This document shows positions 2,361 through 35,046 of a DNA stretch of 35,112 bases, piece after piece (the stretch's first letter is position 1; each line of letters begins with the position of its first letter). Source of the stretch: Thelocarpon superellum (lineage: Eukaryota); assembly GCA_026025795.1 (NCBI GenBank), contig JAPEUG010000163.1, positions 1 to 35,112 on the forward strand, read 5' to 3'. The translations under genes were made by a program, and so were the position numbers. The notes under the pieces are model-generated. The model did no database searches, had not been told where the DNA came from, and saw only the letters and a program-made list of their open reading frames with translations.

Positions 2361-3761
2361 CTAAGATAAGGCCGCTAGCGCCGCACCGGCGTCACCAAAG
2401 TCGCTTAGACGCGAGGTGCGAGCCGGTTGTTGACGATGGGGGAAAGGAATTAATCCGAGGTAGAAGAGACAGGTGATGCAGGCGGAAAGGCTTGCGGTAA
2501 CGGTAGCGGTTCGAGACAAACGACTCTGAGGTAGGCAGGATACGGCGGCCAGCTGACCTCTTTCCATACCCTCATCTTTAATGCCCGCGTGTCGATATAA
2601 ACCCTGACGAACTGCTCCCAACACTGGTAGCGACCCGACGAGGCTTTCGAACAGGACTTCGCTCCACTGGAACATTCCGCCGTCTGCTGGAGCAGACCAA
2701 GGCAGGTTCGTCCGGCCCTTTACTTCGTCTGCGTTGGGCGTCTGATCCTTGTCCGTCCCCACCAAGGCGTTTGCTGGATGAAAGGGTCCGGTAACAAAAG
2801 ACGATTGGAATCGGTTCACGTAGTTGCAGAGGGTGGGATATTTCTCCCTCATCGTGTCTGCCAGCCATGACTGGGGGAGATTGGGGATCAACGAGAGGGA
2901 TAGGTAGCCGAAGGTGAGAAAGTCCAGGCTCGACGGTTTTGAGTCGGACAGAAGATAGCGTTTCTCCGACAGGAGCCTGGCAAGGGGTTCCAAGAACTCG
3001 ACGCTCAGTGCATCTAGTCGCACCCTCCCAGCAAGCTCAGGTCTCCCTAAAAGACTTGTGACGGTGTCTTTGGATGCCTTGCGGAGGCTCCGTGGGATCA
3101 CGTTGGTATGGAAGCTGTCATCGTCTTCGGATTTGTCGTCATTGTTGTCCACGTCCAAAGACGAGAGACCAAGGTGTGCCGACCGATGCCGGGCAGCAGC
3201 GCGGAGCCTTGACGGTATCACGTATCGAAGCGGTGCCGATATAATCCCAGAGTATGCCGACCGAGTAGCTTCGTGGTAGTTCTCTGACGAGACGTAGAGC
3301 GACAGGTCGAGAAGTGGTCGCCCGATTGATTGTAAGAAGGCTCGGAAACTGTGCGTACGGAGTCAACAGAAGACGGGTTATCCTCCATCATCGTCCAACG
3401 TACGCTGTAGAGCTGGCTCTTGCCTCCAGAGGCAAGTCGTTGTCGATGTCCCACGATTCCGGCGAATGCTGTTGAAGATGGTCGAGAATGCTTTCAAATC
3501 CGGAGAGCCAGATGGAGCCTGCCCGGAGAGAGGGCAACACCTCTTTCGCCGAAATGATCATCAGATTACCGACGAATCTACCGATGCGTCTTCACAGACG
3601 TGGCAAGACTTACTCGTAGGGACAAGAGCGGAGGTGCTGGCAACAAGGGTCCAATGCCCCTGGGGCACCACCCGTGAAAAGTACGCAATCAGGGCGATGC
3701 ATTCGGGGTCGATGGAGGGGAGTGAGAAAGCCGGACCCCACACATGGAGCTCAAATGTCAT
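2361..3761 (-). CDS. SAM37: Metaxin/Sam37 (Tom37)-like mitochondrial outer membrane SAM complex subunit
   Basis: N-terminus MTFELHVWGPAFSLPSIDPECIA is metaxin-like, with a GST-C-like segment (PSSLDFLTFGYLSL...YPTLCNYV) and a C-terminal hydrophobic anchor. Introns 3543-3613 and 3349-3403 join the frames. Confidence 0.85.
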
Positions 3762-4080: not shown

Positions 4081-4849
4081 ATGGCGCCGGTACGTCGATA
4101 TTTACGCATCACCAAATACAGCGTACTGGAATGCCGCATCTACCTAGAGAATCCGGCTCTGGCCAACTCATGGCTGCTCAATCCACGGGACCCAGTCCTT
4201 CCTCGTGTCATCCAGAGCGTGAAGCCTCTCGTGCTTCCCAAATTGCGCGAGGAGAAGGAACGAGCGAAAGGGAAGGGGAAGAAGGCAAAGCTAGCCATCA
4301 AGGATGTTGTCGTGGAAGGTGATTGATATCCGGGAGTAGGAAGCTTGCGCTAGGCTAACGTTGGCAATGACCTTTCCAGACGAATATGAAGTTTCCATCT
4401 TCTTCAAAGACATCTCTTCGAGACATTCCGTACTCAACAAGGAGAAGTCTTTTCTCGACCTTCCCGAAAGACCGACCGCCAACTCCAATCAGCACAGCGG
4501 TACGACTAGCACGCTACCGATTGAGGTGCCAGATGAAAACCCGGCCTTGGACACAGTTAGGGCCGAGAGCGACTCCGAAGACGAGATTACGATGCAAGAC
4601 ATCTCGGCCGTGGGCGCTGTGGGTTCACCCGGAGAGGCCGGGTCTTCTCGTCTGGCACGAAAGCTGGACGACAAGAAGATGGGCCTGACGACGTTGTACG
4701 ATGGATTCAGTATCTACAACCAGATCCTTTGCCTGATCGTCAAGCGGCGGCAAAACACTAGACCTGTGGGCAGGGACGGGAACGGACAGGCGCTGGTGGA
4801 AGACTGGATCATTGCCACTCAGGCTGGTGGTGTGGAAGGTGTGAGCTAA
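4081..4849 (+). CDS. Conserved fungal hypothetical protein
   Basis: MAPVRRYLRITKYSVLECRIYLENP... joins through intron 4319-4379 (GT...GCTAAC...CAG) to DEYEVSIFFKD...KKMGLTTLYDGFSIYNQILCLIVKRR. It is divergent from Sam37 across ~320 bp. Confidence 0.85.
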
Positions 4850-7509
4850 CTACCTCCTGCAGGGGCCGCCTTTTTCTAGACATGGATTTGAAATGAACGC
4901 ACCTGTATCAGTAATATGGACGTCCAACTGCAGGACTCGAGGCTCATCGCAACGCTCATATTTGTCATGGCAGGCCATGCGGAGACTTGTATTCCGAGAC
5001 TACAACGCAATCGAGACTGAGAAACGAGGGGCGGACACGGCGCAGCGCACTCGTACCGAACGCGTACAGAGATGCGTCGGCCTGGGCTCTTGGCACGAAC
5101 TGGATCGCGCGTTTCTATCTATAGCCAAGGTCAGTGCTGAACTATCCGAGCTGATCCTGGTGTACACGCAGGTTGCGGAGAGGCAAGCGTCGCCTTGCCA
5201 AGTGCCCGAGACTATTTGTATGCAGGCACATGAGCTTGTCCAAGGTTCTACTTTCGAAAGTGGGATATGAGGAGATATCGTTGTTGTGCGCGCGCTAGCA
5301 AGACGCATCGTAATCAGTTGTAAGCAACCTCAGTGTGCGCTATGTCGAGGGCGGCGGTGGTGGCATGGATGGGCTGAGAAAGCGTGCCTAATCCGTGACG
5401 TATTCGTCCCAGACACCATCCATACCGATCCAACCACAGCGTTGGCGGCAGCTCGCGCACTCCGACGGTGTGCCGGCGGTGCAGGCAATTTACTAGTCGG
5501 TCTTGGGAGGCGCCACAATCAAGGAGCAGGTGACTTCATGCAGGTACCAACGGCAGACATTCAGTAGAGGATGCTCTAGACGGGGTGTAGGACGGGGCAT
5601 GTCGGCTGCGATGCTTGCGCATCGGGCGCTCGTGGGCTGCGGTCGGGAGTGCTTGCAGCACGCAAGACGGCGGAGGTGACATAGCGGGGAGCAAGCGCTA
5701 CGAGACGAAGGAAACCAGCCATTTCGCGGGCGGACGGGTAGCAGCCGCTTGGCACCACCATCCGACAGGGCGACCATGGTGGGCTCATGGTGTGGGTGGT
5801 GTGCTCGATGGTGGAGTCATCTCTCGATAGTTCCCGGAACATGGACAAGTACCGGTACCCGCGGCCGTCCTCGTAAGTTACCAATATGTGCAAGACATGG
5901 GCCGGACGAAGTTTTCGTCAGGTGGGAGGTGCCACCAACCACCCACCACCGACGCTGGAGAGCAATGTGTTCGGCGCCGCTTCCGACCGACCGAGCGCAG
6001 GGCGAGCCCAGATCTGACCGCACACGCCCCACTCAGATTTTTGTTTCGGGCGCGCGAGTATTCGTGGCATGGGTGGGCCATGGAGCGATCGATTCACCAT
6101 GCGCGGCCCTGATGAAGACAGGTCGACCCTCCATCCGACCGGTCCGTGGGGCACTGACGTCAACGGAGAGGACCCGCGGTGGCCCCAGATCTGGAATGGA
6201 TGCGAGGTCGGTGACGTGCGCTGCGCAAGTCGTGCGCGGCGATGGAGACGGGCAACGTTCCGTCGGTCAGACCGGCGGAGACCTTCCGCGTCCACGCGGA
6301 GGTTATGGAGCCGACGTGGATCGGCGGCAAGCTTAGGCCGAATTGACTTTGTCTGCGCTCGTCCGGTTTCGACCAACGCTGCAGCGAGGCCCCCTGAGGC
6401 CCGCGGTACCTGGGCGCGCCACGTTTTCGACGTTTTCCTGGGGAGCACTGCATGAAACCGCATCCGGATGATGCACCAGGGGGGGCAGGAGCCGACCAAT
6501 CGTCGATGGCTCCGGCGGTGCGACACCCGTCACCTGATACTCGCATCTCGAATGGGTTTGGCTTCGCACCAGTCCTACGTCAGTAGCGGCGCGGCAGCTG
6601 CCAGGTACGAAGTACTAGTACGGGCCGGGAAGACTCTGAGGAGCTCGCCTTCCCAAGCGTCAGGGACGAAGGACGGCTCAGCTCCGTCATCCCGGAGGCG
6701 GCCCCGAAGGCAATGCCCAGGGCCGCGTGGTCTTGAAACTCGGATGGGTGAGGCATGCGATCACGCGTTGCGCAGAAGCCGATACCGACGCGCAGGCAGG
6801 GCATCCCCGTCCATCTGACACGCTGCATCATCCGCGGGCTCGCCGTGGCTGTGCCCCCCAAGCGCAGCGGTGCCTAGCGAGCGGTCGGCGCACGCCTTGG
6901 CCGCCTCACCCACGCGCAGCCAGGCACCCACGCACCCAACCATGGGCCACGCGACGGGGCTGCATCCCAATATTGACGGCTGCATGGCCCCTGCCGCATC
7001 GACGACGGTCATCCTCAGCCTTGTACCAGTACCGGCGCGGACGCGGAGCAGGCCCAGGATAATTCTAACCCGCTCACCGCCGCTTCGCCCGTTTCGACCC
7101 CTCGTGCACCTCGACCCTCCACACCGGGGCGCCACGAGTAATCAGACTGGTGCGCGCTTTCAGCACGGACCGTGGTCCCATGCCGGCTTGGCCGTTCCTA
7201 GCATTGTAATCTCGAACCATGAACCATGAATGATGCCCACCTCAACCAATCCGTGGCCCCTCGCCGGCCTTGCGAGCTAGCAAGGCCGCCGTCTGTCGCA
7301 AAGAGCTGGGTCCGTCGGATTGCTCCCCTCGTAGCTTGGGAATGACGACGATCAGCCGCGGCGTCGTCCCTGGACAAAGGAAAAGCATAAATACCCATCG
7401 GCACCTCTGTCTGAGCAACGAACTTTTTTCCATCGAACGCTTCACCGCCACCAGCACAAGCCCTGCTTCTCGCATCCTCTTCGCACGGTCTCCTTTTGCC
7501 ATTCATAAT

Positions 7510-7516
7510 TATATAA
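7510..7516 (+). promoter_or_regulatory. Candidate TATA box (TATATAA) upstream of the micro-ORF
   Basis: An isolated AT-rich patch (ATTCATAATTATATAAC) in very GC-rich DNA, followed by a C/T-rich leader and the ATG at 7681. Confidence 0.55.
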
Positions 7517-7576
7517 CACCCGCACGCGCACACGCTCGCACACTCCACCAACGTCTCCCCTCCATCCTCAAGCAGC

Positions 7577-7680
7577 GTCCTCGTCCTCGTCCTCGCCGTC
7601 GCGTCGCCCTCTGTCCTCATCACGTTGGCCAGGTCGGCCCTATCTCCACCTCCACCTCCACTTCCACTTCCACCACCACG
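7577..7680 (+). repeat. Short hexamer microsatellites (CGTCCT)x3 and (CTCCAC/TTCCAC)x5 in the putative 5' UTR
   Basis: cgtcctcgtcctcgtcct at ~7577 and ctccacctccacctccacttccacttccac immediately before accacgATG. Confidence 0.7.
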
Positions 7681-7773
7681 ATGCCTTCCAACAGCTACTA
7701 CAGCGGCTCCTCGCAATACCCGCCGTGTCCGGGTCCGCCACCGACGCGACCCCTCCCTCCGGTCCCCAAATAG
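7681..7773 (+). CDS. Candidate 30-aa proline-rich micropeptide MPSNSYYSGSSQYPPCPGPPPTRPLPPVPK
   Basis: First ATG after the TATA-like element, good Kozak context (ACCACG-ATG, A at -3), mostly C/G-ending codons, TAG stop and a pyrimidine-rich leader. Confidence 0.6.
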   Translation: MPSNSYYSGSSQYPPCPGPPPTRPLPPVPK

Positions 7774-9272
7774 GTCGCGCCCATGCCGCAACACTACGGG
7801 CGGCTTTGTTCGAAGGCGAAGGTGTCTGACCTCCAGACATCTCGAGTCCCATTCCGACCGTCAGCACATCCGATCGCATTCCACCATGCCCGGCTAATCT
7901 CCACCTGACTGCGACGCGATCGACCAGTTTTCCGACCTCACCATGATGCAAGGCTGAAGTGCCGCGGGCTACATTGCCCAGCGCGCACACACGCGGTGCA
8001 CACCTATCAACCTGACTCGTGCAAGACGCAACAACGCTCAACAATCACGTCTTGGCTCCGCGTCACGTTCCGCCCTTGCGTCGCCCTTGCATTACACTTA
8101 TCGGCTCCCTGCTAGAGATCGCTGGTCGATCTAGACGGTCTCCTTCGCTTCGACGTTTCTTCTCTTCCCTGGGGCTTGTCGCACGGGCCTCCTTTCGTCC
8201 CGCTCGAGGGCGAGTGGGTGGCCTCACCTGTCACTGATCGAGCACATTATTCAGCATACACGGGGGGCTTGCGTGCTAGGACAGGGGCATGGATTGGACA
8301 CGGAGGAATCTGCATCAGAGTCTACGTTGGGCAGCATTGGGTGGTCCGGGAGCTGGCATAGGCTGTCGACGGCACCCTACGATTTAGATAAGGGCTGCTC
8401 TCTGTGCCTCGGTACGCTGGTTCTGTACCGTGGCAGTACTCATTAATCTATGGTATGTGCATGCGTGCGCGTTGGTGTGTGTGTGCGTAGCTGCGTGGAT
8501 GCTTGCGTACGTGCGAGCGTGTGGTGGCATGCCTGTAAATTGATCACGCGGAGCTTGGGCCGCCTTGCGCTCCTCGGTCCCTGCTCCCCTTTCTTGATGT
8601 CATGCCACTTGAGGTGAAACAAGCATGGTCAGCACACGACTTGCCACCGCCCTCAATATGACCCTGCATGCATGTGCGCATGGCCGGATCCATGATTGCA
8701 TGCAATGTAACCTGCAACCCACAACCTCCGACCGGACCTGATCGGAACTACCGGGGGGGCATCGATCGGGCCGGGTACGATTGGAGGACCTGTTGGCGGG
8801 CTCGGTCTGGATCCGATCGACAACGTGGCACACACACGTAGACCCCGTAGCACTGGGACGGAACTCGGACACCGGCCACGCCCCCAGCAGGCTGTGGTCC
8901 AGCTGCCGCAACCCAAGCGAAACAGTCAGTTCTTAGCCTGGCCGGTTTTTGAGGAATGGTCCTCAGCCCATGTTCGTTTGACGACCGTTCGTGGCCGCTG
9001 CTCAAATCAAAAGATGCCCCACCTTGGGGGCCGATTGTGTGGACGCCTTGTGGCGTTTGTGGCGGGTCTAGATCGAGGCGTTGCGGTCGTTCCGAGGAAT
9101 TCTGCGGTCGGAACGGCTGACTCCGCCGTCCGACCGCGGACATTCTTGCCAGAACTTCTACCAGTAGCTTGGATCTTTCCATGGTTCCGAGAGCGTTGAA
9201 CAGCTACCTAGCTCGAAACGTCTCATTGGACTAGGTAACTCGAATCGACCGATCGCCGTCGAGTCGCATCGA

Positions 9273-10652
9273 TCAATCTAGATTCTCAATGAGGATCCAC
9301 AACGATTTCTGGGCCCCCTTGGCCTCTTTGTCCTTCTTATCCCCCTTGCCACTCTTTCGCTCTGATTTCCGCTCGAGCTTATCCATCTTCCGGTCCAGCT
9401 TGTCTAGTTTTCTCTGCTGCCGGTGGTCCAATCCCCCTTGCTGCTCGATCTCTACCGCCTTCTCGTCTAACCTCATCATCTTCTCGGACCAGTTGCCGTT
9501 CCTCGGGCCGTCGGCGCTGCCGGGAATACCGTGCTTCATCCGCTGTTTCATCACCTTGTGCTCCCTCCTCTTTGTTTGTATCTCGACCTGCTTGGCGCTC
9601 ATCTTGGCCAGCATCGTCGTCTGCGAAGTTGGCGGTGGGACATTGAGCGTAACGAAGCTCATGTAGGGCTGAACTGCGGCAATGACCCGCTCCTGGCTTG
9701 TCATGTGGATGTTTTGTTGCGTCAATGGTGCCAACAATGGCATCGAAGGTGGCAGATGGAGGGCCGCTGCCATGGCGTCGCCCGAGGCAATGCGCGCTTG
9801 AAGCCTGCGCGGGGCGAAGAAGGCCGTGTTGACCTTTGTCATGTACATCTCCGTGCGTCCTTTGGACACCGCCGCTTTTCCCAGCTTAGCCGTAGCTTGG
9901 ATAGCGATGCCAGCGATCATGGCCCAGTGGTAGGGAACGAATCCAATGACTCCCCCAACGAGATCCAGCACCTGCAACGGCGGGTTCGAAGTGGTGACGA
10001 CGTTGAGGTTGTCGACAAACTCGACAAATTCCTTTTCGCTGATCCCATGGCTCTCCAGCTCCGGGGCCCAAGCACGGATGTACGGTTGACCGATGCCGCC
10101 GGTAACCTGAGGAATCGCGATCGGTCGTCTCAACGGCGGGATGCTGCCCAGTGGTGGAGGAGGCCTTCGAGTGAATTCAAGTGCCTGTGTCAGCACGTCC
10201 GCATCCGTTGGCTCGGAGCCCGTCCGCTGGGGCGATCGACTATCCCGGAAGGGGGCCGTCTTTGGGTACATTGTTTCGTCGTACGAGGGGGGAAAGGAAG
10301 ACGGCGAAGCGGCCCTCCAGTCGGACGGACCATCATTGGGAACGTATGCCCGTTGAGGTTCAAAGGGGTGCGGATAGGCGGCATACGACTCCCGGTAAGT
10401 CTCCGTTGGAGGATTTGATGCTCTCTTTTCGGATGCCGATCGATAGGCGTCATGTGGCACGTGATTTGAAGCTGGGGCATCCATCATGGGACGAGGCTGT
10501 TGTCGGATAGGAAGAGGCATGGGTAGTTCTCGGGCATATGTCCCCAGAGTTGGTGAAGTGGAGGCGGGACTCGGATGTCGGCGCTCATTGCAATATGAAG
10601 ACGCCGCCATGTAAGGATTCTTCGAATCTGACTGGGAGAGATCGTCCATCAT
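9273..10652 (-). CDS. Conserved fungal hypothetical protein (459 aa, single exon)
   Basis: Long uninterrupted ORF with a disordered Pro/Ser N-terminus containing PPSY, a globular core (RRPIAIPQV...PYIRAWAPELESHGISEKEFVEFVDNLN), a hydrophobic helix pair and a charged coiled C-terminus ending LWILIENLD. Confidence 0.88.
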   Translation of the reverse strand: MMDDLSQSDSKNPYMAASSYCNERRHPSPASTSPTLGTYARELPMPLPIRQQPRPMMDAPASNHVPHDAYRSASEKRASNPPTETYRESYAAYPHPFEPQRAYVPNDGPSDWRAASPSSFPPSYDETMYPKTAPFRDSRSPQRTGSEPTDADVLTQALEFTRRPPPPLGSIPPLRRPIAIPQVTGGIGQPYIRAWAPELESHGISEKEFVEFVDNLNVVTTSNPPLQVLDLVGGVIGFVPYHWAMIAGIAIQATAKLGKAAVSKGRTEMYMTKVNTAFFAPRRLQARIASGDAMAAALHLPPSMPLLAPLTQQNIHMTSQERVIAAVQPYMSFVTLNVPPPTSQTTMLAKMSAKQVEIQTKRREHKVMKQRMKHGIPGSADGPRNGNWSEKMMRLDEKAVEIEQQGGLDHRQQRKLDKLDRKMDKLERKSERKSGKGDKKDKEAKGAQKSLWILIENLD

Positions 10653-12306
10653 GAGCTAATGTCAAGACGATTGCTTGGGCACGGATGAGGTTATTCTTCT
10701 CGAGAGCTAGGAAGGCTAAGGGTTTGAGACGTTTGTTATGACACAGAGAGATTTCTGGAAAGGCGTAGGGATGGATGCTTATATGTCCCATTGCAGGCCA
10801 CCGATGGATTGCATCGATCCACCCATGGCCGTGCAAGGCCATCCCACGATCCGATAAGGCCGCAACGAAAACGACCGACACAGCCCCCGACTTCCATTTT
10901 TCTTCCAGCAGAAAATGTAAGCTGGCCAGCAACGCGAGGGGGGTGCATCGTCACCAGGCGGCGCCTCTCCGCTATTGTCGCAGAATGCATCCTACCAGGC
11001 CTAGCGCGCCGCCTATCGGCCGAGAGCGCGCGAGAAGAGTGGAGGCTTGCAGCAAGTAGTCTTTCGTACCGCAACGCACGGTCGGAGCGAGCGAGCGCTT
11101 GCGACGCGAGACGAGCTACGAGCGTGATGTAATCACACCGCAGCCGTCTGGCTCCTGCAGCCCTGTCATACTCACAAAGTACGAGTAGTGCCTGGCGGTT
11201 TCGGCGTAATTGCGAGCCCTCCTTGCGGCCGTTGTTGGGCGTTGTCGGGTGTAGCTGTCTCCCTTGAGCTGCCGCACATTCTCGGGGGAAGGGGGAGGGG
11301 GGAGGGTAATGCCCAATTTCAGGTCACTCTCATTTCCAAACGGGATCGATGAGCGGTGGAATCTTTCCACTTGGCCGCGTCATTTTACGAGGTTCAAAAA
11401 ATCATTTTATCACGATTTAAACATTGAATCGATCGACTATTTAGCGTTTCTTTTTGGAAGCTACCCCTACCGTAGTTTCTGCTCCAGATTCTGGCCAAAT
11501 ATTATAGCAACGATAAATGGACGGTGGTTGCTGAATGTTAAGACCTCTTCATCTAATGCGCCAATCAAGTGCAGGCTCGCGACAATTTCCCCGTTCGCAA
11601 GTGAGGATGGGATCGTCGCACCAGCCCACTTTTTACGTCATCGCGGCTCCCCAGTAGCTCCACATCAATCACCAGCGACGAGGACAACGAACGACATGAA
11701 CGAAGATGATTTAATATGAAATCACTCGCTGCCGACACGTATGCCTCTTCGCGTATATGGCTCAAAGATATGTTCGTGCCAGCCAAACTTGGTCCATCCG
11801 ACGCCTTGTTCAACGCGTTGGGCTTCTTCAAGTGAGATGCGATTAGTTCCTATGCGCATCTTGACTTGCTCTTGAGTGACGTACCGTACGTGGCGGTGTC
11901 CGGAGAGGTGTCTCAGGTGTAGTCTGTGCAATGGACGTGCTTAGGCATCGTCCGCACGACGGCATTCACGAGACGATGGTGGTCACCGGTCGGTGTCTAC
12001 GTCGGAGTACCACCGATCCATTTCCTCAGGGTTATCAAGGGTCGCGAGGCAATGACAGGTCCCGTTGCGGTACCTGTGCCCATCGCGGCAGGGGATTCGT
12101 CCAGGTCTTTAACTGTAGCTCTCCAATTGTGGGGGGCCCCGCGTAACCGGGTCGGATAACTGATAATTCTCTACCCATTGCCACCTCCAGCTCTCGTCGG
12201 CAGCGACCCTGGCCCGGGAATCGCCTTCCCATGGGCCACGTGCATGAGGGAGTGTGGGAGCTGATGATCGCCTGGGAGGATCGTCTCTTGGCGGCACGAG
12301 AAAGAA

Positions 12307-15235: not shown

Positions 15236-17039
15236 CTACGAACTCAGGACGGGTGAACTAGACAAGAGGGGATATGCATATGAGCCGTTGGAAAGGGCAG
15301 GAAGAGGGCCGAAGAATCGGACTGGGGTTGAACAAGACGTTTTTGTCAGATACAAGACCCTTCAACCTCGAGTATGGGGATACTAACGGTTGAGAGAGAA
15401 ATTTCCGCCCCCAGCAGGAGCGGGGAGCCAACTACAATGGGTGCAGGGTTAGTAAAGGTAAGAGAAGGTTGGTAGGTTCTCAAGGGCTCGACTCGGGACT
15501 CACTTGCGGGTCCAATTCTGCGGCGGCGTCGTATTAGCTGGCTGGATCAAGATTTGAAAAGGTCCATCGCTTGTTGCGTTTCCGTAGACCAGGAAGCCAT
15601 CCGCGAAAGTCAAGTTGCTCCGGTCACCCAGGGAGTAGATGTTCATGGGATTGGGAATCAGAAATTGGTTGGCGCCGTAAGCGGTCAGACTCCAGAATGC
15701 AGTCACTGGAGGCTTGGCCGAGAAGGTTAATATAATCGCCTCGCCTGCCTTCACCACCAGGGTGGCAGTCTCGCTTTCGCCGACATATGCTGGGTAGAGG
15801 GCTTGCGACGCGACCAGCTCCAGATAGCCTGTGCGTGCAACGTTGGCTCGGGCAAAGTAGTTGGGTCCGTAGTTGCCACTGAGAGAAGGAAGTGGCTGAG
15901 TCCAGTTGTTGCCGAGATCCTGGCGATTGGCGGGATCAGAGAACGTCTCTGCCATCCTGCGTCTTGCGTCGTCATTCGCAGCGGTCAGATTCACCCCAGG
16001 TGGCTGCGTGTAGGACCCGTTCTGAAGGCCTGCCAGGTCCAGAATTGCCGAGACATTCCCTAACTCATTGCCAGGCTCTGGTAGATTGTAAGGGTAGAGG
16101 CGTGCGGTACGCTGAAGGGCTCGTTCCTCGGGAGATCCGGAGAGACTGCCATTCAATCCCTCGAGAGATAGGGCAGGTGCTTGTGACTCGGCATCAGCTC
16201 GAGCGACAGGAGTCACTTGTATCTGAGACCGCAAGTGTTGGACAGCGGCCACGTCGGTCGAGTTGTTTCGAAGTAAGATCCGGATGATTACAGACCCGTA
16301 TGTTGTCGGGAAGTTGACAATGCCCGCGTATCCAGGACGAGCCTCCGCGGAAGCAACGTCGCTCAACAGGTGCAAGCCCGGCGGACCACGATCCTGACCC
16401 CCAAGTCTGAGAAGGTAGGTTCCGGGAGCGGTGTTGGTGACGCTTCCAATGTTGGCAAAGTTGTTGCCGTATCTGCCCAGAATGTCAATTGAGCCCATTG
16501 CGTACCGAGGGGGTGGACCAGGGGTGGACCAGGGGTGGACCAGGGGTGGACCAGGGGCGGACCAGGGGCGGAGGACGACTCACACGTCATAGAAGGGAAA
16601 GACGTAAAATCGACCATCGGAGACCGCTGGAACGGTCAGGGCCAGGTCGGTGTGGGACAGATCCACCACCATCCTGGAGTACAGCGTATCCGCATTGGGC
16701 CGCACAACGGCCGTCCAGCTGGCGGTCAGCAGTCGCGGCTCATGGTAGATTTCATTCAACCCCACATGCGACAGAACAGTCGCGGCTAGATCGGTGTAGG
16801 GGCCGAGTGGGTAGCCATACTGGTACAGGTCTCAGTCCCTTCACGTCCTGTCTTCGAGGCGCCGTCATAGCAGCAGAGGTTCTCACCGCCAAGGCAAATG
16901 TTGTCGCGTCCTGGGCATTGTCCTGGGGTGCGAAAGCCGAGCGCTTAAGCCGCCCATTCGTCGCTTGACTCCCGGACGACAGGTGCACCAAGCCATGCAG
17001 CAAGAAAATAAGGGCCGGAGAGCACATCAGCTGCATCAT
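15236..17039 (-). CDS. Secreted DUF1254/DUF1214-domain protein
   Basis: Signal-like N-terminus, then YGYPL...VVRPNADTLYS...GRFYVFPFYDVYGNNFA (DUF1254-type) and FWSLTAYG...YSLGDRS...NWLPAPAGGG...LRFFGP (DUF1214-type). Introns at 16820-16886, 16473-16583, 15432-15503 and 15322-15387; many N-X-S/T sequons. Confidence 0.87.
16510..16575 (+). repeat. Intronic 11-bp tandem minisatellite (GGGGTGGACCA)x4 + GGGGCGGACCA + GGGGCGGAGGA
   Basis: Read directly from the sequence; lies wholly within intron 2 (16473-16583) of the DUF1254 gene. Confidence 0.95.
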
Positions 17040-17691: not shown

Positions 17692-20600
17692 TCACCGCCT
17701 GCGACCCCCTCCCCTAGCCACCTCCACCTCCACTTTCAACGACCCAACAACATCCTCACACCTTCCACAAAGCACTAGATCAAGCTCGGGCGTACCGAGG
17801 GGCGCTACGTAACGCCAACATCGGGCGCACTTGGCTTTCGTGGGCGGCAGGATGTGTGCTGTTGCGCTCCCCGGGCCGTCTGGGGTGTCGAAGGCTTGCG
17901 CGTAGGACGCGCTAAATCCACTTTGAATGCTGTCACTGTCTTCGAGTCGAGTGGTGGTGAGCGTCACGCTTGAAACGACGAAGAGACTGTCCAATTCAGA
18001 CAGGTAGGAGTTGAACAGTCCGTAGCCCTTCGAGGCGGTCGATGAGGAGGCGGTAGACGGAGGGGGAACGGAAAAAGAGAGAACGACAGAAGATTGCAGC
18101 GAGGAGCCCATGTCCTTCTTCGTCCTCGCCTGTTCCTGTGCCGCTTTGATGGCGGCATTGGCCGCAAGGAGCCACGGAAGATCGAGCCGGAGTCTCGGGT
18201 GACTCCATTGAGGGGCGGGCGCGGGAAAGAGTCGTTGGAGGGGATGGGTAGTCGTGTCTTTGAGCTGCGCCGGGGTATGCTCCCATGCTTCTTCGACGAG
18301 CAGCGGTGTGATGGGCGAGAGCATGCCGAGGAGGTGGTCGGAGACGTGCATCAGCACCGTTTGAGCGGCACGGCGACTGACGCTGTTGGCGCCATCGGCG
18401 TAGAGTCGGTCTTTGATTGACTCGATGTAGAGCGCTGATAAGTCGAGATTGATCCATCGGTTGATGGCGTTGACGGCTGTGGAAGGGACGTGAATGTGTT
18501 AGTGAGGGTCGGGACGGTGGCGGAAATGAAGGCACCATACCTCGGTGGAATTCGTAGCTTTGATAGGCTTGTCGCACGGTCGCATTGACCTCTCCGAGCT
18601 GCAGCAGGGCGATCTGATCCATGCTCGTGAGCCCCTCGTACCTGATCTGATCCGTCGCATGGAAATCTTGGAGTGCTCCCAGCAGCAGCTTGATCGTGAC
18701 GCGGAGCTTGTGCAGGCTGGCGTGGATGGCCTGCAGAGCTGGCTGGCTGATCATCACATCGCGTGTGTAATCGCTTCCGGCGGCCCACAACCTCAACGCG
18801 TCGGGTCCGAGGCCATCATATGTCGACGCATTCCTGTCCGACGCCATTCCTTTCTGGCCCTTCTTCCGTTTGACGGGCGGGAGCAGGGATCCGTCCAAGA
18901 TCTGCTCCGGCGACACCACGTTGCCCATGGACTTGCTCATCTTTCGCCCGCGCTCGTCCAGGGTAAACCCATGTGTGAGGAGCGTCTTGAACGGCGGTCG
19001 TGCGTCCGTGGTCACGCCACTCTGGTGTGCAATGTAGGTCAGGAGGCTGGATTGGAACCACCCGCGATGTTGGTCACTCCCTTCGCAGTACACGTCGGCC
19101 AGAGGCTGCCCTGATGACCGAGCTTCAAGCAGCTGCGTCCAGCTTGTGCCGCTGTCGAACCACACATCCATCGTGTCCATGCCACGACGATACATCGACG
19201 GGCCCTCGCCCTCACGAAGCTCTGGTGGTGTCCAGCTGGCATCATCTTCGGCATCTGTCCACCACGTGTCAATCCCACGCGCCTCAATCATCGCCATGAC
19301 ATGCGAGACACTTCGCTCCGTGACAAGTGCCGACCCCGATTCTCGATGGTACAGAGCCGGAATAGGCACACCCCACGCCCGTTGTCGCGAGATGCACCAC
19401 TCGTTTCTGCCCTTCACGAAGCTTTGTAGTCTGGACTTGCCGCTCGCAGGAACGAATTGGACGTGGTCGAGGGAGGCCAAGGCCTGGTCCTTGATGCTCC
19501 CCACGTTGGCAAACCACTGCTCGGTAGCGCGGATGATGATCGGACGCTTCGTGCGCCAGTCGTAAGGATACTTGTGCGTATACTGATGAGTCGCGACCAC
19601 TTCTCCCCGCTTGCTGAGGTAGTCCAGCACCCGGCGGGCCCCGTCGCCCAGGACCTCCGACCCCGTCAGCGCCGCCGAATCATCCTGGCAGGCGGTAGCC
19701 ACGAAGCGTCCATCAGCGTCCACTGGCGCAAAGACGTCCAGGCCATGTTGACGGCAGAGCTCGTAGTCGTCGAATCCGTGGCCCGGCGCACAGTGCACCA
19801 TCCCTGTTCCCGAGTCCGCCGTGACGAATTCGGCGTGTATCAATGGCCGAGGATCAGGTCGCTCACCGTCGAATACATTAGCATATCGTACTGCCCCAAC
19901 AAGGTCTCGTCCTGGGATGTTGTCGACAACGATCGTCAATGTGCCGGGCGAGACAAATTGTAAGAGATGTGGTATTCTCGATCGCGCCAGTAAGAGCTGG
20001 CCGCATGAAGGTACGTCCACGACGGCGAACAGCGTCTCTGTATCGATGGCGACGGCTCGGTTGGCCGGTAATGTCCAAGGCGTTGTGGTCCAGATGAGGA
20101 CACCGAGGCGGTCGATCTCTACTCGCTCATCCTGCGCCAAGGCAGGAGGCAAAGTGATGACGGGAAACTTGACAAAGGCAGCTAAGGACTGGTGGTCTTC
20201 TCGATATTCGAGTTCAGCTTCGGCCAAGGCGGTGGCAGAAGAAGGTGACCAGTACACGGGCCTGAACCGTCGGTGGATCATGTCTAGATATACGTCAACC
20301 CCTGAACCAATCTCTCCCCGGATGCTGTCAAAGCCCGCGACGTTGCCTGACCTTTGTCCACCATCTCACGGAAAAGGGCTAGCTGTCTCATCTCGAAGGA
20401 GTGGTCCATGGTTTTCCACGCCCCGTCCCAATCGGCCATGATCCCCCATCCCCGGAACCCTTTCATCTGCCCGGCAATGGCCGTGGCCGCCAGTCCTTTC
20501 GCGGCCGACCTGACGGCTGCTGGGCTTAGCACCTCGGCTTTGGTCGAGGTAGTATGCTGTGCTTGGGGTTGCTGGAGCGCCTTGAGCTCGATGGGCAGAC

Positions 20601-20913
20601 CATGACAGTCCCATCCTGGCACGTAGTGCACGCGTTTGCCCTGGGTGAGTTGAAAGCGACAGATGACGTCTTTGAGCACTTTATTGAGTGCGTGTCCGAC
20701 GTGGAGATCGCCATTGGCGTAGGGTGGTCCGTCATGAAGGACGAAGGATTGCTCGGGCGGACGCGTGCGGCGCTGCCAGTCATAGAGGTCATCGGAACAT
20801 TGCTGCAAGAGCGCGGCCTGACGAGCGAGCGACGGTCGGGGCGGGAAGGTGGACTTGGGCAGGCACAAGGTTGATGACCATGATGTGTACAGTACACGGG
20901 TCGGACGAAGCAT
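17692..20913 (-). CDS. ISM1: Mitochondrial isoleucyl-tRNA synthetase (bacterial IleRS1 type)
   Basis: HDGPPYANGDLHVGH, GWDCHGLP, IWTTTPWTLP, GTGMVHCAPGHG, WCISRQR, EGSDQHRGWF and KMSKS motifs, plus C-terminal CARC...CGRC zinc knuckle. Introns 20284-20351 and 18477-18540; presequence-like MLRPTRVLYTSWSS start. Confidence 0.96.
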
Positions 20914-21176
20914 CTCACCGGAAGACCATGATGCAGCCCGTCTTGTGGCAAAGCGGTCCACTCGTACTACTCATACAGCTCAGAAGCTTGACGATGGAGC
21001 TCTTGGAAAAAGTAACGTTAGCTTCGCGATTTAGCACGCTGCTTTACAGTGCGAGTGTGCTCCCATAGTATGGGACACTCTCGCATCGTGGTACTGACGC
21101 TCCCCGAAAACTAGACTGGAAATCGGTGGTCTATTCTACGGAAGCTATCCGTCGTTCTAATATACAGCTATGGTGG

Positions 21177-21230: not shown

Positions 21231-21872
21231 GTACCATCCGTGAACACCGGACGTTGGGGAATCATATCTCATTTCCGTGCTCGAAAAATACATGCCGTCT
21301 CGGGGAATCGTACTTGGGCCGAGAATAATTGAAGTGGCCGTAATGCAGCATCTTGGGATAGGAAGACTTTGGGCTCTGCGCATCCCTTTCTCCTCAGGGA
21401 TCAAAACAGTTTCACGAGGCAGGATGGCAAAAGCACCCGCCGGGATCTGGGCAGGATCCCGGCTGGTCGAAACAATCCACTGGTCCGCCCGCGGTGATCT
21501 GCGGGGTTTTCAGGGATGGTTTGCGAGTTGGTATCCAGATGGCGCAAATGGAGGAACCATTTCCACTACGCCATCTGGGGTTACAGACACAAGCGGTCAA
21601 CTGGTATAAAACCTGTCCGAAGAATCTCCTAGGCTGTGACGCTGCATCGCTCCTGCCTGAGGAGGTGCTGCATCAGGATATTCACTTTGCGTACTCCAGT
21701 CACCCGAGCTGACACCATGCTGGGGACAGATCTCAAGTCGATGAGGGAAATGGACGCGTGACAATCCTCGACGCCGACGCCGTTTGTCCCAGTCCCTCGC
21801 TATGCAGACACGCCAAACATGAAGACGAGGATCCTGGTGGTCATCCACCCGTGAAATACGCGAGGGGAAGTC

Positions 21873-23588: not shown

Positions 23589-23928
23589 TATATATACGCC
23601 TCAGCCTCCTCCTCCTCCTCCAACTGGACCAGTCAGGATCGTGAGGCAGAGGGCGGCTTCAGCTGACCGGCAAGTATCTAAGCCGCTTGATCTATCGCGG
23701 CTCAGCCGGACGCGTGAAGGTCAAGATGACTGCCCCTCGTCAGTCGGCCTTCGTCACTTGTCACCCGAGATCACTCACTGGTCCAAGAATGGTCTAGCGG
23801 GACGTTATTGCGAAACGGGCGTAGCGTGATCTGTAGCGGGGTGGGCAGGTGCAGCTTGGCCGTCAGCTCCTGCTGCGGGTGTGTGGTTGGCGAGTTTTGG
23901 CGTGCGCCGGGATTGTTTGGTTGTTTAC
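23589..23928. promoter_or_regulatory. Divergent promoter region with TATATATA (23589-23596), MCB ACGCGT (23710-23715) and forkhead-type TGTTTAC (23922-23928)
   Basis: Motifs read directly. They fit a cell-cycle regulated kinesin-5, but short motifs also arise by chance. Confidence 0.35.
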
Positions 23929-30401: not shown

Positions 30402-30832
30402 CTACTCCCCACTGCCTTTCCATTCAAACTCTGGAAAGGATGTCAGTGATTAGAAGACGCGGGGGATATGGGCGACAAACTCTGCCGGCACATGGGACAG
30501 AGCCCTTTGGCGGCTTCTTGATCGATCCATTTGACCAGACAATGCTGAAGGCGGATGAGAACCAGCGCGGCTGTGCTCACGGTCTTGTTCCAGACATATG
30601 ACGTACCATGTGAAAGGAATGGCCGCACTTGCCAATGACTGAGGGTCCCATGGTCAGTAGGCTGGCTCTTTGCTCGAGAGGTCGACCCACGTAGAGAGCA
30701 ATCGTCTCCTGGGTACTTGCACGTGGGACAGGTCCCATCGAACTGGACGCGACAGATGCCACACACGTCATCCTCGGGCATGTCCCATCGCCACGAGGCC
30801 ACTCCATTCCACTCTTTGATTCGGACCTTCAT
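30402..30832 (-). CDS. APC11: Anaphase-promoting complex subunit 11 (RING-H2)
   Basis: Splicing at 30639-30690, 30545-30606 and 30431-30480 gives MKVRIKEWNGVASWRWDMPEDDVCGICRVQFDGTCPTCKYPGDDCSLLIGKCGHSFHMHCLVKWIDQEAAKGLCPMCRQKFEWKGSGE. Confidence 0.96.
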
Positions 30833-31109
30833 ACTAAGGGAGGTGCGGGGGAAGAGGATGTTGGGGGAGGGGTGGGCGAGGGGCGGAGTTGGGCGATCGG
30901 CTGGCGGGGTGAAGCAAAGTACAGAGTGGCCGTGGTGGGGCAAAAGTGAAACCTATGCGAAGGCATACCCACGAGCACTCATCCTATCGCTCGCTCTCCA
31001 GCGTGGTATGCCGGTCTCCCTGCGCAACTTCCGCGCCCTTTGCTCTCTGCCCAATGTAACCCACTCAAACCCGTAGACCAGTCCAACCATCTCGTCTGTA
31101 TCACAGACG

Positions 31110-32210
31110 ATGGCGGCCTTGATACGGACCAGGCCAACATCGCTCAGCAAGACCCGAATGCTTTCTCGTCTGCACCAGCAACCCGCACGACGAAACATGT
31201 CGTCCTACCTCGTCACTCCCAAAGAGCTGTCCGATGCATTGGCCACGAACAAGCATGTGGCAGACTCATCGTCTCCACGCGTGATCCCGTTATGTGCCGC
31301 CTGGTTTCTCCCCAATGATAATCAGCAACGCACTGGCGCTTCCGTCTTTCGGAAACAGCATATCCCCACCTCACGTTTCTTTGATCTCGACGCCGTGAAA
31401 GACCATACCTCTCCGTACCCCCACATGTTACCCAACGCTGCCGACTTTGCCCAAGCGATGGGAGATTTAGGTATCAAGAAGGACGATAAGGTGGTCGTCT
31501 ACGATAGCGCCGAACTGGGCATCTTCAGTGCACCGCGGGCTGCCTGGACCCTGAGGGTGTTTGGCCACGGCCAGGTCCATGTACTCAACAACTTCCGTCT
31601 GTGGGTGGAGCAGGGATACCCTGTCGAGGCGGGCGAGATGGTCTCTTTCCCACGTGTACAATACCCCACACCTGATGTGGACCTCTCCGGCGTGGTCGCT
31701 TTTGACGTGATTCGTGAGGTGGCCCGTAAGGCCAAAGCGGACGGCACAGCGCAGGTCCAGATTCTTGACGCTCGGCCGCGCGGGAGATGGCATGGGACCG
31801 ACCCGGAGCCACGGCCTGGTGTGTCCGGGGAACCCTACCATCATACCCCAGGCTAACCGGTGCGCAGGTCTCTCGTCCGGACACATTCCCGGTTCGCTCA
31901 GCGTGCCCTTTTCGGATCTCTTGGACCCGTCCACCAAAACTCTTCGACCCGTGAACGAGCTGAAGAAAGTCTTCGAGCAGGCCGGTGTAGATCCGACGAA
32001 GCCCATCATCAGTAGCTGCGGTACGGGCGTCACGGCCGCCGTGATCGATGCTGCGCTGAATGAGGCCGGCTACGGGTCGCATCCGCTCTATGACGGCAGT
32101 TGGACGTAAGTCGCCCTTGACTTCTCGGGCTACCTGATCCCCGCTAAATCGCCGGTAGGGAATGGGCCCAACGGGTGACGGACGACGAAGGTCTGATTCA
32201 GAAGACCTGA
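31110..32210 (+). CDS. TUM1: 3-mercaptopyruvate/thiosulfate sulfurtransferase (double rhodanese)
   Basis: HIPTSRFFDLD, PHMLP, DKVVVYD, APRAAW, ILDARPRGR, SGHIPG, active loop SCGTGVTA and LYDGSWTEW. Introns 31819-31867 and 32106-32158; TGA at 32208-32210. Confidence 0.95.
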
Positions 32211-32241: not shown

Positions 32242-33201
32242 CTACCCCGCGATCGACTCTGCTCCACCTCCGCTGTCCTCTCGGAGATCTGGAAGCCAGC
32301 CTGTGGGTCGTTCTCGACCTCGGATGATCATGCCGTATGCGGCATTTTCGACCTTTTCCACACACGTCTTCATCACCCCCATCTTCTGCTCCATCTCCTT
32401 TCCAAGTCCGGCATTCCGTCCACTCGAGGATGTGTCAAGGGACTCGAAGGCACTACGGAGTGAGCGTAAATCGGTCAAGATATCTCGACCTGCAGCATGC
32501 AAATCATGGCTCATGGAGTTCTTTGAACCCGCGGCAGCCGCTGGAGTGCTGCGCTGGGCACGAGGGAGTGAGCCCGAGGTGGCCATGGAGGTGATGGCAA
32601 AGCGCATCAATTCTCCGACCAGATCAAAGAGGCCTAGCACGTAGTCATCTTCCGTCAGCTGCACGCCGGCCGGGAGTCGCTGGTCAGCTTCGTCGAGGCT
32701 GATCAGACGCTGCGTGGTCAGGTAATGCTCCAACGACACCGCCTCAACGAACTCCTGGATGCCGCCGGAGATCTGACGCCGGTAACGCCACGCATTGATG
32801 CCGCGTACATCTTCTACGATCGACGTGAAGAGCTTCGCAATCGTAGCTGCCCGTTCGGCGTTCTCCGCCGCGATCGGCTTGGGGATCTGGCGGTGGAGGT
32901 GGCGTATTCTGTGTCGCTCAGATCAGGTTGGAAAGACAAGGAGACGAGGGCAAGGGTACCTTTGAAGAGAGAAGATCCTGCGCAACGGATGAGCATGGTA
33001 GTGGTGCGCACACGCTCCTCCAAGATCTCACATCTTCTTACTCAACGCGGTGATATCGCGTGCGGCTTTGATTGTCCGTTCGCGTCGATCGTGATGCTCG
33101 TCGAGCTCGTCCCGGAAGGCCTCGAACATGCTCATGTACGGGGACACCACGGTCGGCTCGTCCACCGGGCCTGAGTCGCGAGGTCGTTTGACGCCTGCCA
33201 T
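32242..33201 (-). CDS. TSNAX: Translin-associated factor X (TRAX; C3PO nuclease subunit)
   Basis: FRDELDEHHDRRERTIKAARDITALSKKMIFSLQR, IQEFVEA, DYVLGLFDLVGELMRFA and KVENAAY. Introns 32978-33031 and 32909-32959 flank an 18-nt microexon. Confidence 0.93.
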
Positions 33202-33529
33202 CGTGCCTCTTTATGAGACTCTGCACGCAAGGGACGTGGCGGTCCAGCGAATGGATCGAAGGAGTGAAGATGTCCGATGCCCAAGGCCCCATGTCGTCAA
33301 GTCAAGCGAATCAAGCTGGACGACACAACCTTCATCCGAGTCGGCCGAATCTCCGAACGAAAAGTACCTTCACACTACGATACGCTCCTTCAATGTAGCG
33401 TTCATCTCTCTGCTGAGCGACCAATCTCTGTAGCAATCTCCTGCCTCTCCTCGAGTGATATCTGTACAATCGACATTCGAGCTCCGTGCGCACCGTTTGG
33501 CCGAATGACTCGACATCGGCCGTGATTCG

Positions 33530-35046
33530 ATGGGCTTGGCTGGGATGTCCACCTTCTTCACCGCGAAACACGTCTTTGTGGCTGCTGCACTCCTTCGCCT
33601 CGGTCTTTTCTCCTACGGCTTGGCCCAAGACGCCTATTCTCCGGTCAAATATACCGACATCGACTACTATGTCTTCACCGACGCTGCGCGCTTCGTGTCC
33701 GAAGGTCGCTCCCCCTACGACCGCGCCACCTATCGATATACGCCCCTGCTAGCATGGACGATGCTCCCGGCCGTCTGGCGGCCATGGACCTTTTCCTTTG
33801 GCAAGATTGTTTTTGCGCTGGCTGACCTCGTTGCCGGGTGGCTGATCCGCGACGTCCTCCGTGCCCGGGGGATGCCGGAACTGCAAGCGCTGCAGTTTTC
33901 TAGCATCTGGCTGCTGAACCCCATGGTGGCGGCCATCAGCACGCGCGGGAGTGCTGAGGGACTCCTGGGAGTCATGGTCGTGGCTCTCCTCTATGCGGTG
34001 ACGCGGCGGAGGATAGTGCTGGCGGGACTCCTCCTGGGCCTGGCCGTGCACTTCAAGATCTATCCCTTCATCTACGGCCCGACCATCCTCTGGTGGCTGG
34101 ACGACGATCGCCTGTCTCGTCCTGCCCGGCCGGCAGCATTGGGACAGCCTCCCGTGACGAGCCGCGTCGCGCACTTCTTCAACGCGGAACGCCTCACGGT
34201 GACCGTGGTCAGTCTGATCACCTTTATGGGCCTCAACCTGGTGATGTACTCGCTGTAAGTTCGCTCTCCTCGAAGCTCGGTCCAACCTTGACCGTGGCGT
34301 GTAGGTACGGATGGCCTTTTGTCCAGCACACGTATCTCCACCACGTCTCGCGCATCGATCACCGGCACAACTTCTCCGTCTACAACACTCTTCTCCACCT
34401 AAATGCGTCGCCGGCCGGAAGCTCGGATCTGCGTCTCGAGTCGTTAGCGTTCATTCCACAGCTAAGCCTTGCGGCGCTGATCCTACCCTTGATGCTCGCC
34501 AAATTGGACCTGGCCAGCACGATGCTCGCCCAGACCTTTGCTTTTGTCACCTTCAACAAAGTGTGCACGAGCCAGGTACGTGGGCGCCGGCGCCGGCGTA
34601 AGCGTGGGGGTGGAACCCAGTGTCGGAGCTAACGTGGCGACGGCAGTACTTCCTGTGGTACTTGACCTTTTTACCCTTCTACCTGCCCAACTCTTCCCTC
34701 CGTGCGCGGCGGCACATGGGCCTCCTCGCGGCATTTCTCTGGGTGCTGGGCCAGGTCAGTGTTCCCACGCCTCCGACCTCCTCATGGCTGATGCGGGCAG
34801 TAGGCGCTCTGGCTGCAGCAAGCCTTTCGGGTCGAGTTGCTTGGCATCAGCACCTTTGTGCCGGCCCTCTGGGCTATTGAGACTGTCTTCTTTGCCATCA
34901 ATGTCTGGATCTTGGGCGTGGTGGTGTCGGACATTAAGGCTGGCACAAGCCAGCGTGATTCCCATGGACTCGCGAATGTCCCTATCGCGCCCCTACGCGG
35001 CTGGTCCAAACGTCTATCGGCTGCGACATCTGCATCACCGCCCTAG
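33530..35046 (+). CDS. GPI14: GPI mannosyltransferase I (PIG-M); start may be the ATG at 33545
   Basis: VKYTDIDYYVFTDAA (DxD), SPYDRATYRYTPLL, WLLNP, ISTRGSAE, VHFKIYP, RIDHRHNFS and FNKVCTSQYFLWY. Introns 34255-34304, 34576-34646 and 34755-34803. Confidence 0.96.

Follow-up and report, generated by a model that had tools for sequence, protein, structure and literature searches.

The locus

The window, by which we mean the whole 35,112-nucleotide stretch of Thelocarpon superellum DNA analysed here (contig JAPEUG010000163.1), contains an open reading frame (ORF) of only 30 codons, hereafter the micro-ORF, on the + strand; it lies in a gap of roughly 4 kb that separates two convergent genes. 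The left border of this gap is a + strand gene, the last long ORFs of which end at 4849 and 5270; the right border is a − strand ORF (9273–10655). A sequence-only reading of the window had described here a gene-like layout, composed of TATATAA, a C/T-rich leader, an ATG at 7681 in a strong Kozak context, the ORF and its stop codon, within a gap devoid of any ordinary gene. A check of the 35-kb sequence found each of these elements where that reading had placed it (Table 1), and none of the 15 gap ORFs scanned reached the Pfam cut-off. The ATG is preceded by A at −3 and followed by C at +4. Since 7381–7680 contains no ATG, a scanning ribosome would meet the ATG of the micro-ORF first.

Table 1. 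Features of the window, with the micro-ORF and its surroundings first and the remaining neighbours below
Feature	Position	Strand	Remark
Candidate TATA box, TATATAA	7510–7516	+	171 nt 5′ of the ATG; promoter use putative
Leader, C-rich, G-poor and ATG-free	7517–7680	+	51% C, 20% T
Hexamer repeat arrays in the leader	7576–7618, 7644–7679	+	Tandem Repeats Finder (TRF)
Micro-ORF, 30 codons and TAG, encoding MPSNSYYSGSSQYPPCPGPPPTRPLPPVPK	7681–7773	+	
Invariant core YPPCPGPPPTRPLPP	7717–7761	+	15 codons; with the next-but-one Pro, a conserved block of 16/17 residues
RPLPPVP	7747–7767	+	fits the class I SH3-ligand consensus [RK]xxPxxP (regular expression); binding predicted from the motif
Stop codon TAG	7771–7773	+	3 codons past the core
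Left neighbour gene, exons 4081–4320 and ~4340–4849	4081–4849	+	synteny anchor, outside the micro-gene
NB-ARC/AAA domain ORF	1–1290	−	NLR-like gene, running off the window start
Tom37/SAM37-like	2364–3362	−	
DUF1254/DUF1214	15503–16579	−	
APC11	30446–30952	−	
Rhodanese	31077–31853	+	
Translin	32245–32922	−	
PIG-M	33509–34629	+	

On the + strand between 5000 and 9400, the TATATAA listed in Table 1 is the sole TATAWA. Across the 35-kb window TATAWAW is found at three places, giving 5 matches on the two strands against 1.08 expected, a number that 1 of 100 shuffles gets to. The other two places are 21605–21611 and 23589–23596, the latter sitting between divergent PHAF1-like (−) and kinesin-5 (+) genes. 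The upstream part of the gap (5350–7150) has a GC content of 62–69%, versus 50–57% in the flanking genes, and carries long open frames on both strands without a Pfam match. An Rfam scan over the region returned only two sub-threshold matches, both to bacterial small-RNA families (Chloroflexi-1, 32.6 bits where the gathering cut-off is 80, and sX7, 23.2 where it is 55), at 9088–9162 (+) and 9013–9147 (−), which we take as chance in a fungal 3′ region.

Judged from the window on its own, the ORF and its motif are not above chance. There are 279 ORFs of at least 30 aa starting with ATG in the window, 36 of them in the gap (5300–9270), and among these 36 a RxxPxxP motif occurs in four and PxxPxR likewise in four. 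All three + frames are open across the micro-ORF site because the strand is C-rich (GC skew −0.47). What takes the micro-ORF beyond chance is its conservation in other sequences.

Homologous reading frames in other sequences

When 1.84 billion cluster representatives were searched exhaustively with the 30-aa peptide (phmmer), exactly one match reached E ≤ 0.001, a protein from a metagenome-assembled genome of Lichina confinis (hypothetical protein M1815_001830, KAI9750389.1, 73 aa; E = 1.9e-4). This protein, YSGSSQYPPSPGPPPTRPLPPLP, is 79% identical to residues 2–30 of the window peptide, and YSGSSQYPP-PGPPPTRPLPP-P is unchanged between the two. It is the sole annotated relative that we found, is known here as an annotated protein alone, and has no other homologue of 40–128 aa that we could find.

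To reach relatives outside protein collections, we scanned metagenome contigs with a degenerate DNA pattern for YPPxPGPPPTRPLPP, which fixes only the 14 named core residues. The scan recovered 11 loci with 7 distinct ORF DNAs and 4 distinct peptides (MPGSIKYPPCPGPPPTRPLPPVPKR, MPAGSIKYPPCPGPPPTRPLPPVPKR, MPGSIKYPPCPGPPPTRPLPPTPR and MPGSVKYPPCPGPPPTRPLPPIPKPK); the same pattern had no match in prokaryote genome contigs. The earlier reading had expected homologous ORFs elsewhere, and these loci and the Lichina protein bear it out. Together with the window, the loci provide 8 distinct ORF sequences, which we sorted into four lineage groups: the window itself; clade A (L001, L002 = L009, L006 and L005 = L007 = L011); clade C (L003 = L008 and L004); and L010. 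The metagenome contigs are called fungal on the strength of their homology to the window and of split, eukaryote-type ORFs for isoleucyl-tRNA synthetase (IleRS).

The ORF is 24–26 codons long at all 11 loci, with the consensus MP(A)GS[IV]KYPPCPGPPPTRPLPP[VTI]P[KR]... Much of this agreement lies outside the search pattern. Thus, at every locus ATG-CCN stands 6–7 codons 5′ of the core, MP(A)GS[IV]K forms the N-terminus, the codon left free within the core encodes Cys (TGC or TGT), a Pro follows two residues past the core, and a stop codon comes 3–5 codons past it, as it does in all 8 distinct ORFs. This arrangement agrees with the mention, in the sequence-only reading, of YPPCPGPPPxRPLPP near the end of small fungal ORFs. 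A purine is present at −3 in 7 of the 8 distinct sequences, including the window. Given the frequencies of sense-strand stops (1.8%) and ATG (1.5%) in the ±300 nt flanks, such placement would arise by chance with a probability of 0.051 per lineage for the stop and 0.098 for the ATG, or ~7e-6 and ~9e-5, respectively, over the four lineages.

Upstream of the ATG the in-frame sequence is unrelated among loci, and in L001, L004 and L005/L007/L011 it contains an in-frame stop 9–21 codons 5′ of the ATG. The leaders of the 7 distinct loci resemble that of the window in being ATG-free over 161 to more than 300 nt (the L010 contig offers just 174 nt upstream), with 39–49% C and 6–17% G. In clade A, a non-coding block 200–300 nt 5′ of the ATG has 78 of 100 columns identical and contains CCTATAAGTC at about 215 nt from the ATG. 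In the alignment of L001, L002, L006 and L007 (columns ~17–125) the block reads CCTGGTCACCATGTCATACTAGCTCGG...GCTGCTGGCAT.TCCTATAAGTC. It looks like a promoter with a TATA-like element, and the ATG-free leader and the conserved upstream block fit the presence of a dedicated, if putative, promoter.

Other database searches were negative. Pfam gave no family at E ≤ 10 for five peptides and the Lichina protein, and the PDB gave no chain at E ≤ 10 for the peptides. With the 40-aa natural extension of the micro-ORF (7651–7770), word-indexed protein searches returned 192 candidates, none at E ≤ 10, and the near-match mode returned no candidate. The ESM Atlas held no usable match for the peptide. A collection of 15 billion proteins contains no exact copy of any of the four orthologous peptides, of the window peptide or of the right-hand ORF, and keyword and motif-string searches of the accessible literature found no description of the peptide.

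Codon-level conservation

Among lineages, the core differs at 7–14 of its 15 third codon positions, which is near saturation (13 differences between the window and L003, 14 between L004 and L010), while second positions show no difference at all. First positions show a single one, Arg being encoded by CGA in the window and by AGA or AGG elsewhere, a change that is synonymous in this frame only. Codons that the pattern did not impose vary likewise (CCT/CCC/CCG/CCA, TCT/TCA, AAA/AAG and TGC/TGT), and there is one conservative Ile/Val change.

Clade A offers a comparison free of the pattern, since its flanks can be aligned and its members are thus homologous irrespective of how they were found. 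Over its 4 distinct sequences the ORF comprises 81 columns, of which 71 are identical, 7 variable and 3 gapped, the gap being one whole codon. All 7 variable columns are at codon position 3 (p ~5e-4 under even spread). The numbers of identical, variable and gapped columns are 43, 43 and 14 in the 100 nt 5′ of the ATG, and 51, 45 and 4 in the 100 nt 3′ of the stop. Conservation in clade A therefore begins at the ATG and ends at the stop. Between clades, blastn alignment is limited to 55–90 nt of the ORF, and the cross-clade tblastx matches above 45 bits are, apart from neighbouring genes, to the ORF itself. For reference, the N-terminus of IleRS in the window (~20021–20886, −) is 71, 44, 68 and 59% identical to that of clade A over four high-scoring segment pairs, so the core of the micro-ORF is better kept than a housekeeping enzyme.

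By the usual standards for small ORFs, start and stop are conserved within fewer than 100 codons (24–30 codons in 8 of 8 distinct ORFs), and codon-level purifying selection is seen both in clade A and across clades, the core residues in the latter comparison being fixed by the pattern. The conserved ATG, the conserved stop and the synonymous bias of changes, on which the sequence-only reading had staked its case, are thus all present in relatives. As judged from these alignments, purifying selection has kept the ORF, its start, its stop and its peptide in four or more fungal lineages that are deeply separated, and no coding element at the locus other than the micro-ORF is conserved. We conclude that it is very probably a conserved, unannotated protein-coding micro-gene.

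Several observations weigh against this conclusion. The core residues of the metagenome loci were set by the search pattern, which makes the invariance of first and second positions at 14 of the 15 codons partly an artefact, and the pattern misses more divergent orthologues, so that changed cores are hidden. Variation at the third position of a CCN codon is synonymous in one antisense frame (GGN) as well; the sense frame is decided only by the placement of start and stop, by the Arg CGA/AGR change and by the shortness of antisense ORFs. Antisense Gly-rich coding was considered and rejected, the antisense ORF being 31 aa long in the window and none of at least 60 aa lying over the L003 site. 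The Lichina protein, which unlike the metagenome loci was obtained without any bias towards the core residues, shares with the window a Ser/Tyr-rich N-terminal insertion. Yet this sole bias-free relative has Val at the Met of the window and Ser at its Cys, and its annotated ORF extends 12 codons further 5′ and, with no stop after the motif, 32 codons beyond the stop of the window as a 32-residue tail. Finally, taken over its whole length, the window ORF does not score like a gene in codon usage. A codon-usage log-odds score trained on nine long ORFs of the window is −0.02 per codon for the micro-ORF, versus 0.08–0.37 for the long ORFs, with +0.39 over its first 13 codons and −0.34 over its last 17.

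The peptide and its SH3-ligand motif

The encoded peptides have 24–30 residues, 37–46% proline, 2–4 basic and no acidic residues, a pI of 9.1–10.3 and no hydrophobic segment. Their core is YPPCPGPPPTRPLPPxP[K/R/Q], and every one of the 8 distinct ORFs begins with Met-Pro, all four Pro codons being in use among them. A chain so short and so rich in proline is presumably not globular, which would place [RK]xxPxxP in an accessible context. Two traits singled out by the sequence-only reading are not shared by all relatives. An N-terminal Tyr/Ser-rich stretch is present in the window (SNSYYSGSSQ), but is lineage-specific, being common only to the window and Lichina and replaced elsewhere by G-S-I/V-K; and the single Cys, although present in 8 of 8 ORF sequences, is replaced by Ser in Lichina.

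The classical class I ligands of SH3 domains follow [RK]xxPxxP; examples are the RPLPPLP peptide bound by Src SH3 and, in yeast, the Pbs2 proline motif to which Sho1 binds. As had been noted from the sequence, RPLPPxP matches this consensus, in the form RPLPPVP in the window and RPLPPLP in Lichina. The motif is invariant in all 9 sequences: each of the 8 distinct ORFs has [RK]xxPxxP, as does the Lichina protein (together RPLPP[VTIL]P), and the last Pro of the motif, which is outside the pattern, is kept in the 8 ORF sequences and in Lichina alike. Classical class I motifs are found inside large proteins or in synthetic peptides, whereas the motif of the micro-ORF makes up a quarter of the whole gene product and lies within a 16-residue invariant block. 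A class II motif, PxxPx[RK], overlaps the class I motif in clade A only (4 of 8 distinct ORFs). Pfam detected no SH3 domain encoded in the window (47 ORFs) or at the metagenome loci (88 ORFs).

We envisage a micro-gene with a putative TATA-type promoter of its own and a long, C-rich, ATG-free leader, the released product of which would work in trans as a polyproline-II ligand of extended length. Docking would most likely be of the invariant class I motif RPLPPxP to an SH3 domain, and the equally invariant upstream half, YPPCPGPPP, could provide a second contact or extra specificity; the peptide would then compete with, or bridge, SH3-mediated complexes. Action in trans through a proline-recognition domain is, in our judgement, somewhat probable. 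That this domain is an SH3 domain we hold only tentatively, at a little short of even chances. An SH3-ligand role is plausible because RPLPPxP is invariant; SH3 binding itself, and the diffusible decoy role suggested in the sequence-only reading, we infer from the motif.

One point of the sequence-only reading needs correcting. The conserved unit of 16 residues extends far beyond a minimal ligand of this kind, which also counts against the SH3 assignment, as an invariant block exceeding what an SH3 domain needs may mean that the partner is not SH3, or not SH3 only. The best-surviving alternative follows from this. The peptide might bind a non-SH3 module (WW, EVH1/WH1, GYF or profilin), or two modules at once, RPLPPxP then being merely part of a longer interface. 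The invariant block YPPCPGPPPTRPLPPxP is double the usual length of an SH3 ligand, its YPPCPGPPP half by itself contains neither [RK]xxPxxP nor PxxPx[RK], and the restriction of the class II motif to 4 of 8 distinct ORFs indicates that the C-terminal basic residues are not fixed (the consensus motif assignments of WW, EVH1 and GYF are general background here). Against this stands the perfect class I consensus of RPLPPxP, invariant even at the Pro outside the pattern, and we regard this alternative as unlikely.

The SH3-ligand reading can be taken a step further, although speculatively. In this version the peptide would be an ancient fungal product consisting of docking motifs only, tuning by competition one conserved SH3-organised machine, for which osmosensing, endocytic actin assembly and polarity are candidates. 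Removal of Met would leave an N-terminal proline, a possible Pro/N-degron for the GID/CTLH ligase, and the peptide could by this route be short-lived and nutrient-controlled, or serve as a bridge between the ligase and an SH3 protein. So specific a proposal is a long shot.

Neighbouring genes and alternative readings

The left neighbour gene of the window begins MAPVRRYLRITKYSVLECRIYLENP... and has neither a Pfam family nor an ESM Atlas match. By tblastx, its homologue in clade C (L003/L008) is located about 1.3 kb away from the micro-ORF, upstream and on the same strand, which is the side and strand that it has in the window; the L010 homologue is located downstream on the opposite strand, in convergent orientation. 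The next gene downstream in the window is convergent. In clade A, IleRS begins about 0.9 kb downstream of the micro-ORF on the same strand (L002, L005, L007 and L011), whereas IleRS of the window (17695–20970, −) is 10 kb away and on the other strand. The neighbourhood is thus conserved but, on this comparison, rearranged between the window and clade A. The loose synteny supports orthology of the micro-ORF loci, and the differing downstream neighbours indicate that the micro-ORF is not an upstream ORF (uORF) of one conserved main ORF. Cross-clade tblastx revealed no second conserved coding block within up to about 2 kb on each side (less at contig ends). With its own start and stop kept and its neighbours changing from lineage to lineage, the micro-ORF behaves as the stand-alone gene that it had been taken for from its layout.

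This bears on a possibility in which the peptide itself has no job. Its polyproline stretches (PGPPP and RPLPP) might act in cis by pausing the ribosome, for instance as an eIF5A/polyamine sensor, with the pause controlling its own transcript or a downstream cistron. Conserved peptide uORFs, such as that for the fungal arginine attenuator peptide, have 20–30 codons and begin at whichever AUG comes first in a long leader, and the micro-ORF is like them in its length, its conservation at the amino-acid level and its position as first AUG of a long leader; the same signature could therefore be read in either way. The proximity of IleRS in clade A, on the same strand, and the presence of another ATG 1–13 nt past the stop in three of the four lineage groups also speak for an effect in cis. 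However, carriers of a conserved peptide uORF would all have a homologous main ORF downstream, and no conserved downstream ORF was found; the downstream gene depends on the lineage, and is convergent in the window and L010. Nor is the distance from core to stop fixed: it is 3, 4 or 5 codons, the last residues being K, KR, R or KPK, which is a poor fit to termination stalling. The conserved Tyr, Cys, Thr and Arg, moreover, would be unnecessary for a polyproline pause. Lacking a conserved main ORF, varying in core-to-stop spacing and differing in its neighbours, the micro-ORF departs from the arginine attenuator peptide, and we consider action in cis to be distinctly improbable.

In the window, the ATG past the stop lies 9 nt from it in the same frame and opens an ORF at 7783–7908; elsewhere it is found at ~743 in L001, ~2073 in L007 (in the orientation of the ORF), ~1587 in L003 and ~955 in L004. 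The ORFs opened by these ATGs encode 41–115 aa, are unrelated between clades and have 1–2 nt indels within clade A. As a second cistron they were ruled out, being not conserved between clades and frame-broken within clade A. The ATG itself may be a coincidence, expected at roughly 0.17 per lineage, or a reinitiation site.

A further alternative is that the micro-ORF is an exon of a larger gene, unannotated or mis-annotated; it could be the first exon of such a gene, with splicing right at the stop, or the last. The 73-aa Lichina model continues on both sides of the shared region, and the last sense base taken together with the stop reads GTAA or GTAG in clade A, clade C and L010, a possible intron start in the same phase. 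Fungal introns typically have G at +5, and these GT sites lack it (GTAACT, GTAATC, GTAACA, GTAGCC and GTAAAC), while the window has no GT at its stop. The lack of a second conserved coding block within the up to about 2 kb per side compared by tblastx (174 nt upstream in L010), the in-frame stops 9–21 codons 5′ of the ATG and the unrelated upstream in-frame sequences all argue against flanking exons. By tblastn, the 32-residue Lichina tail has no counterpart in the window, which rules out a missed second exon there corresponding to it. An exon of a larger gene is, thus, very improbable.

The last alternative is that the micro-ORF arose by chance within a promoter or leader rich in C, or is a conserved DNA or RNA element rather than a peptide gene. 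This would accord with the chance-level ORF and motif, the neutral codon score and the compositionally open frames of the window, but is scarcely credible given that every third base is free, which disfavours a DNA or RNA element, that all variable positions in clade A are codon position 3, with a whole-codon indel and the synonymous CGA/AGR change beside them, and that unalignable DNA lies on either side of the conserved ATG and stop.

Comparison with known systems and significance

Proline-rich antimicrobial peptides of insects and mammals have about 18–30 aa and 40–50% Pro, and are basic and without acidic residues. The product of the micro-ORF is comparable in size, proline content and basic charge, and in being free of acidic residues. 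These antimicrobials, however, are fast-evolving immune peptides, whereas the micro-ORF is far more strongly conserved, has no repeated PRP units and encodes no signal peptide or precursor: MP is followed by the conserved sequence, and in-frame stops occur shortly upstream.

A closer likeness exists among human microproteins. The evolutionarily young PALLD-uORF-MP as well as RAB12-uoORF-MP pulled down SH3-domain proteins on peptide arrays and are very short products of which the only recognisable feature is a proline-rich linear motif of the SH3-ligand type (PMC10032668). There is thus precedent for microproteins acting via proline-rich linear motifs (PMC10032668). The two human products are young in primates, derived from a uORF or an overlapping uORF, and bind in vitro (PMC10032668), whereas the micro-ORF is fungal, deeply conserved and stand-alone, and is known here from sequence alone.

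ORFs this short are discarded by gene callers, and just one relative, mis-sized, was annotated. Scans with degenerate codon patterns can recover micro-genes that protein databases miss. Should the micro-ORF be expressed, it would be one of few eukaryotic micro-genes that are deeply conserved, stand alone and have as their product essentially a single linear motif. It would then give simple genetic access to the regulation of domain–motif networks by free motif peptides.

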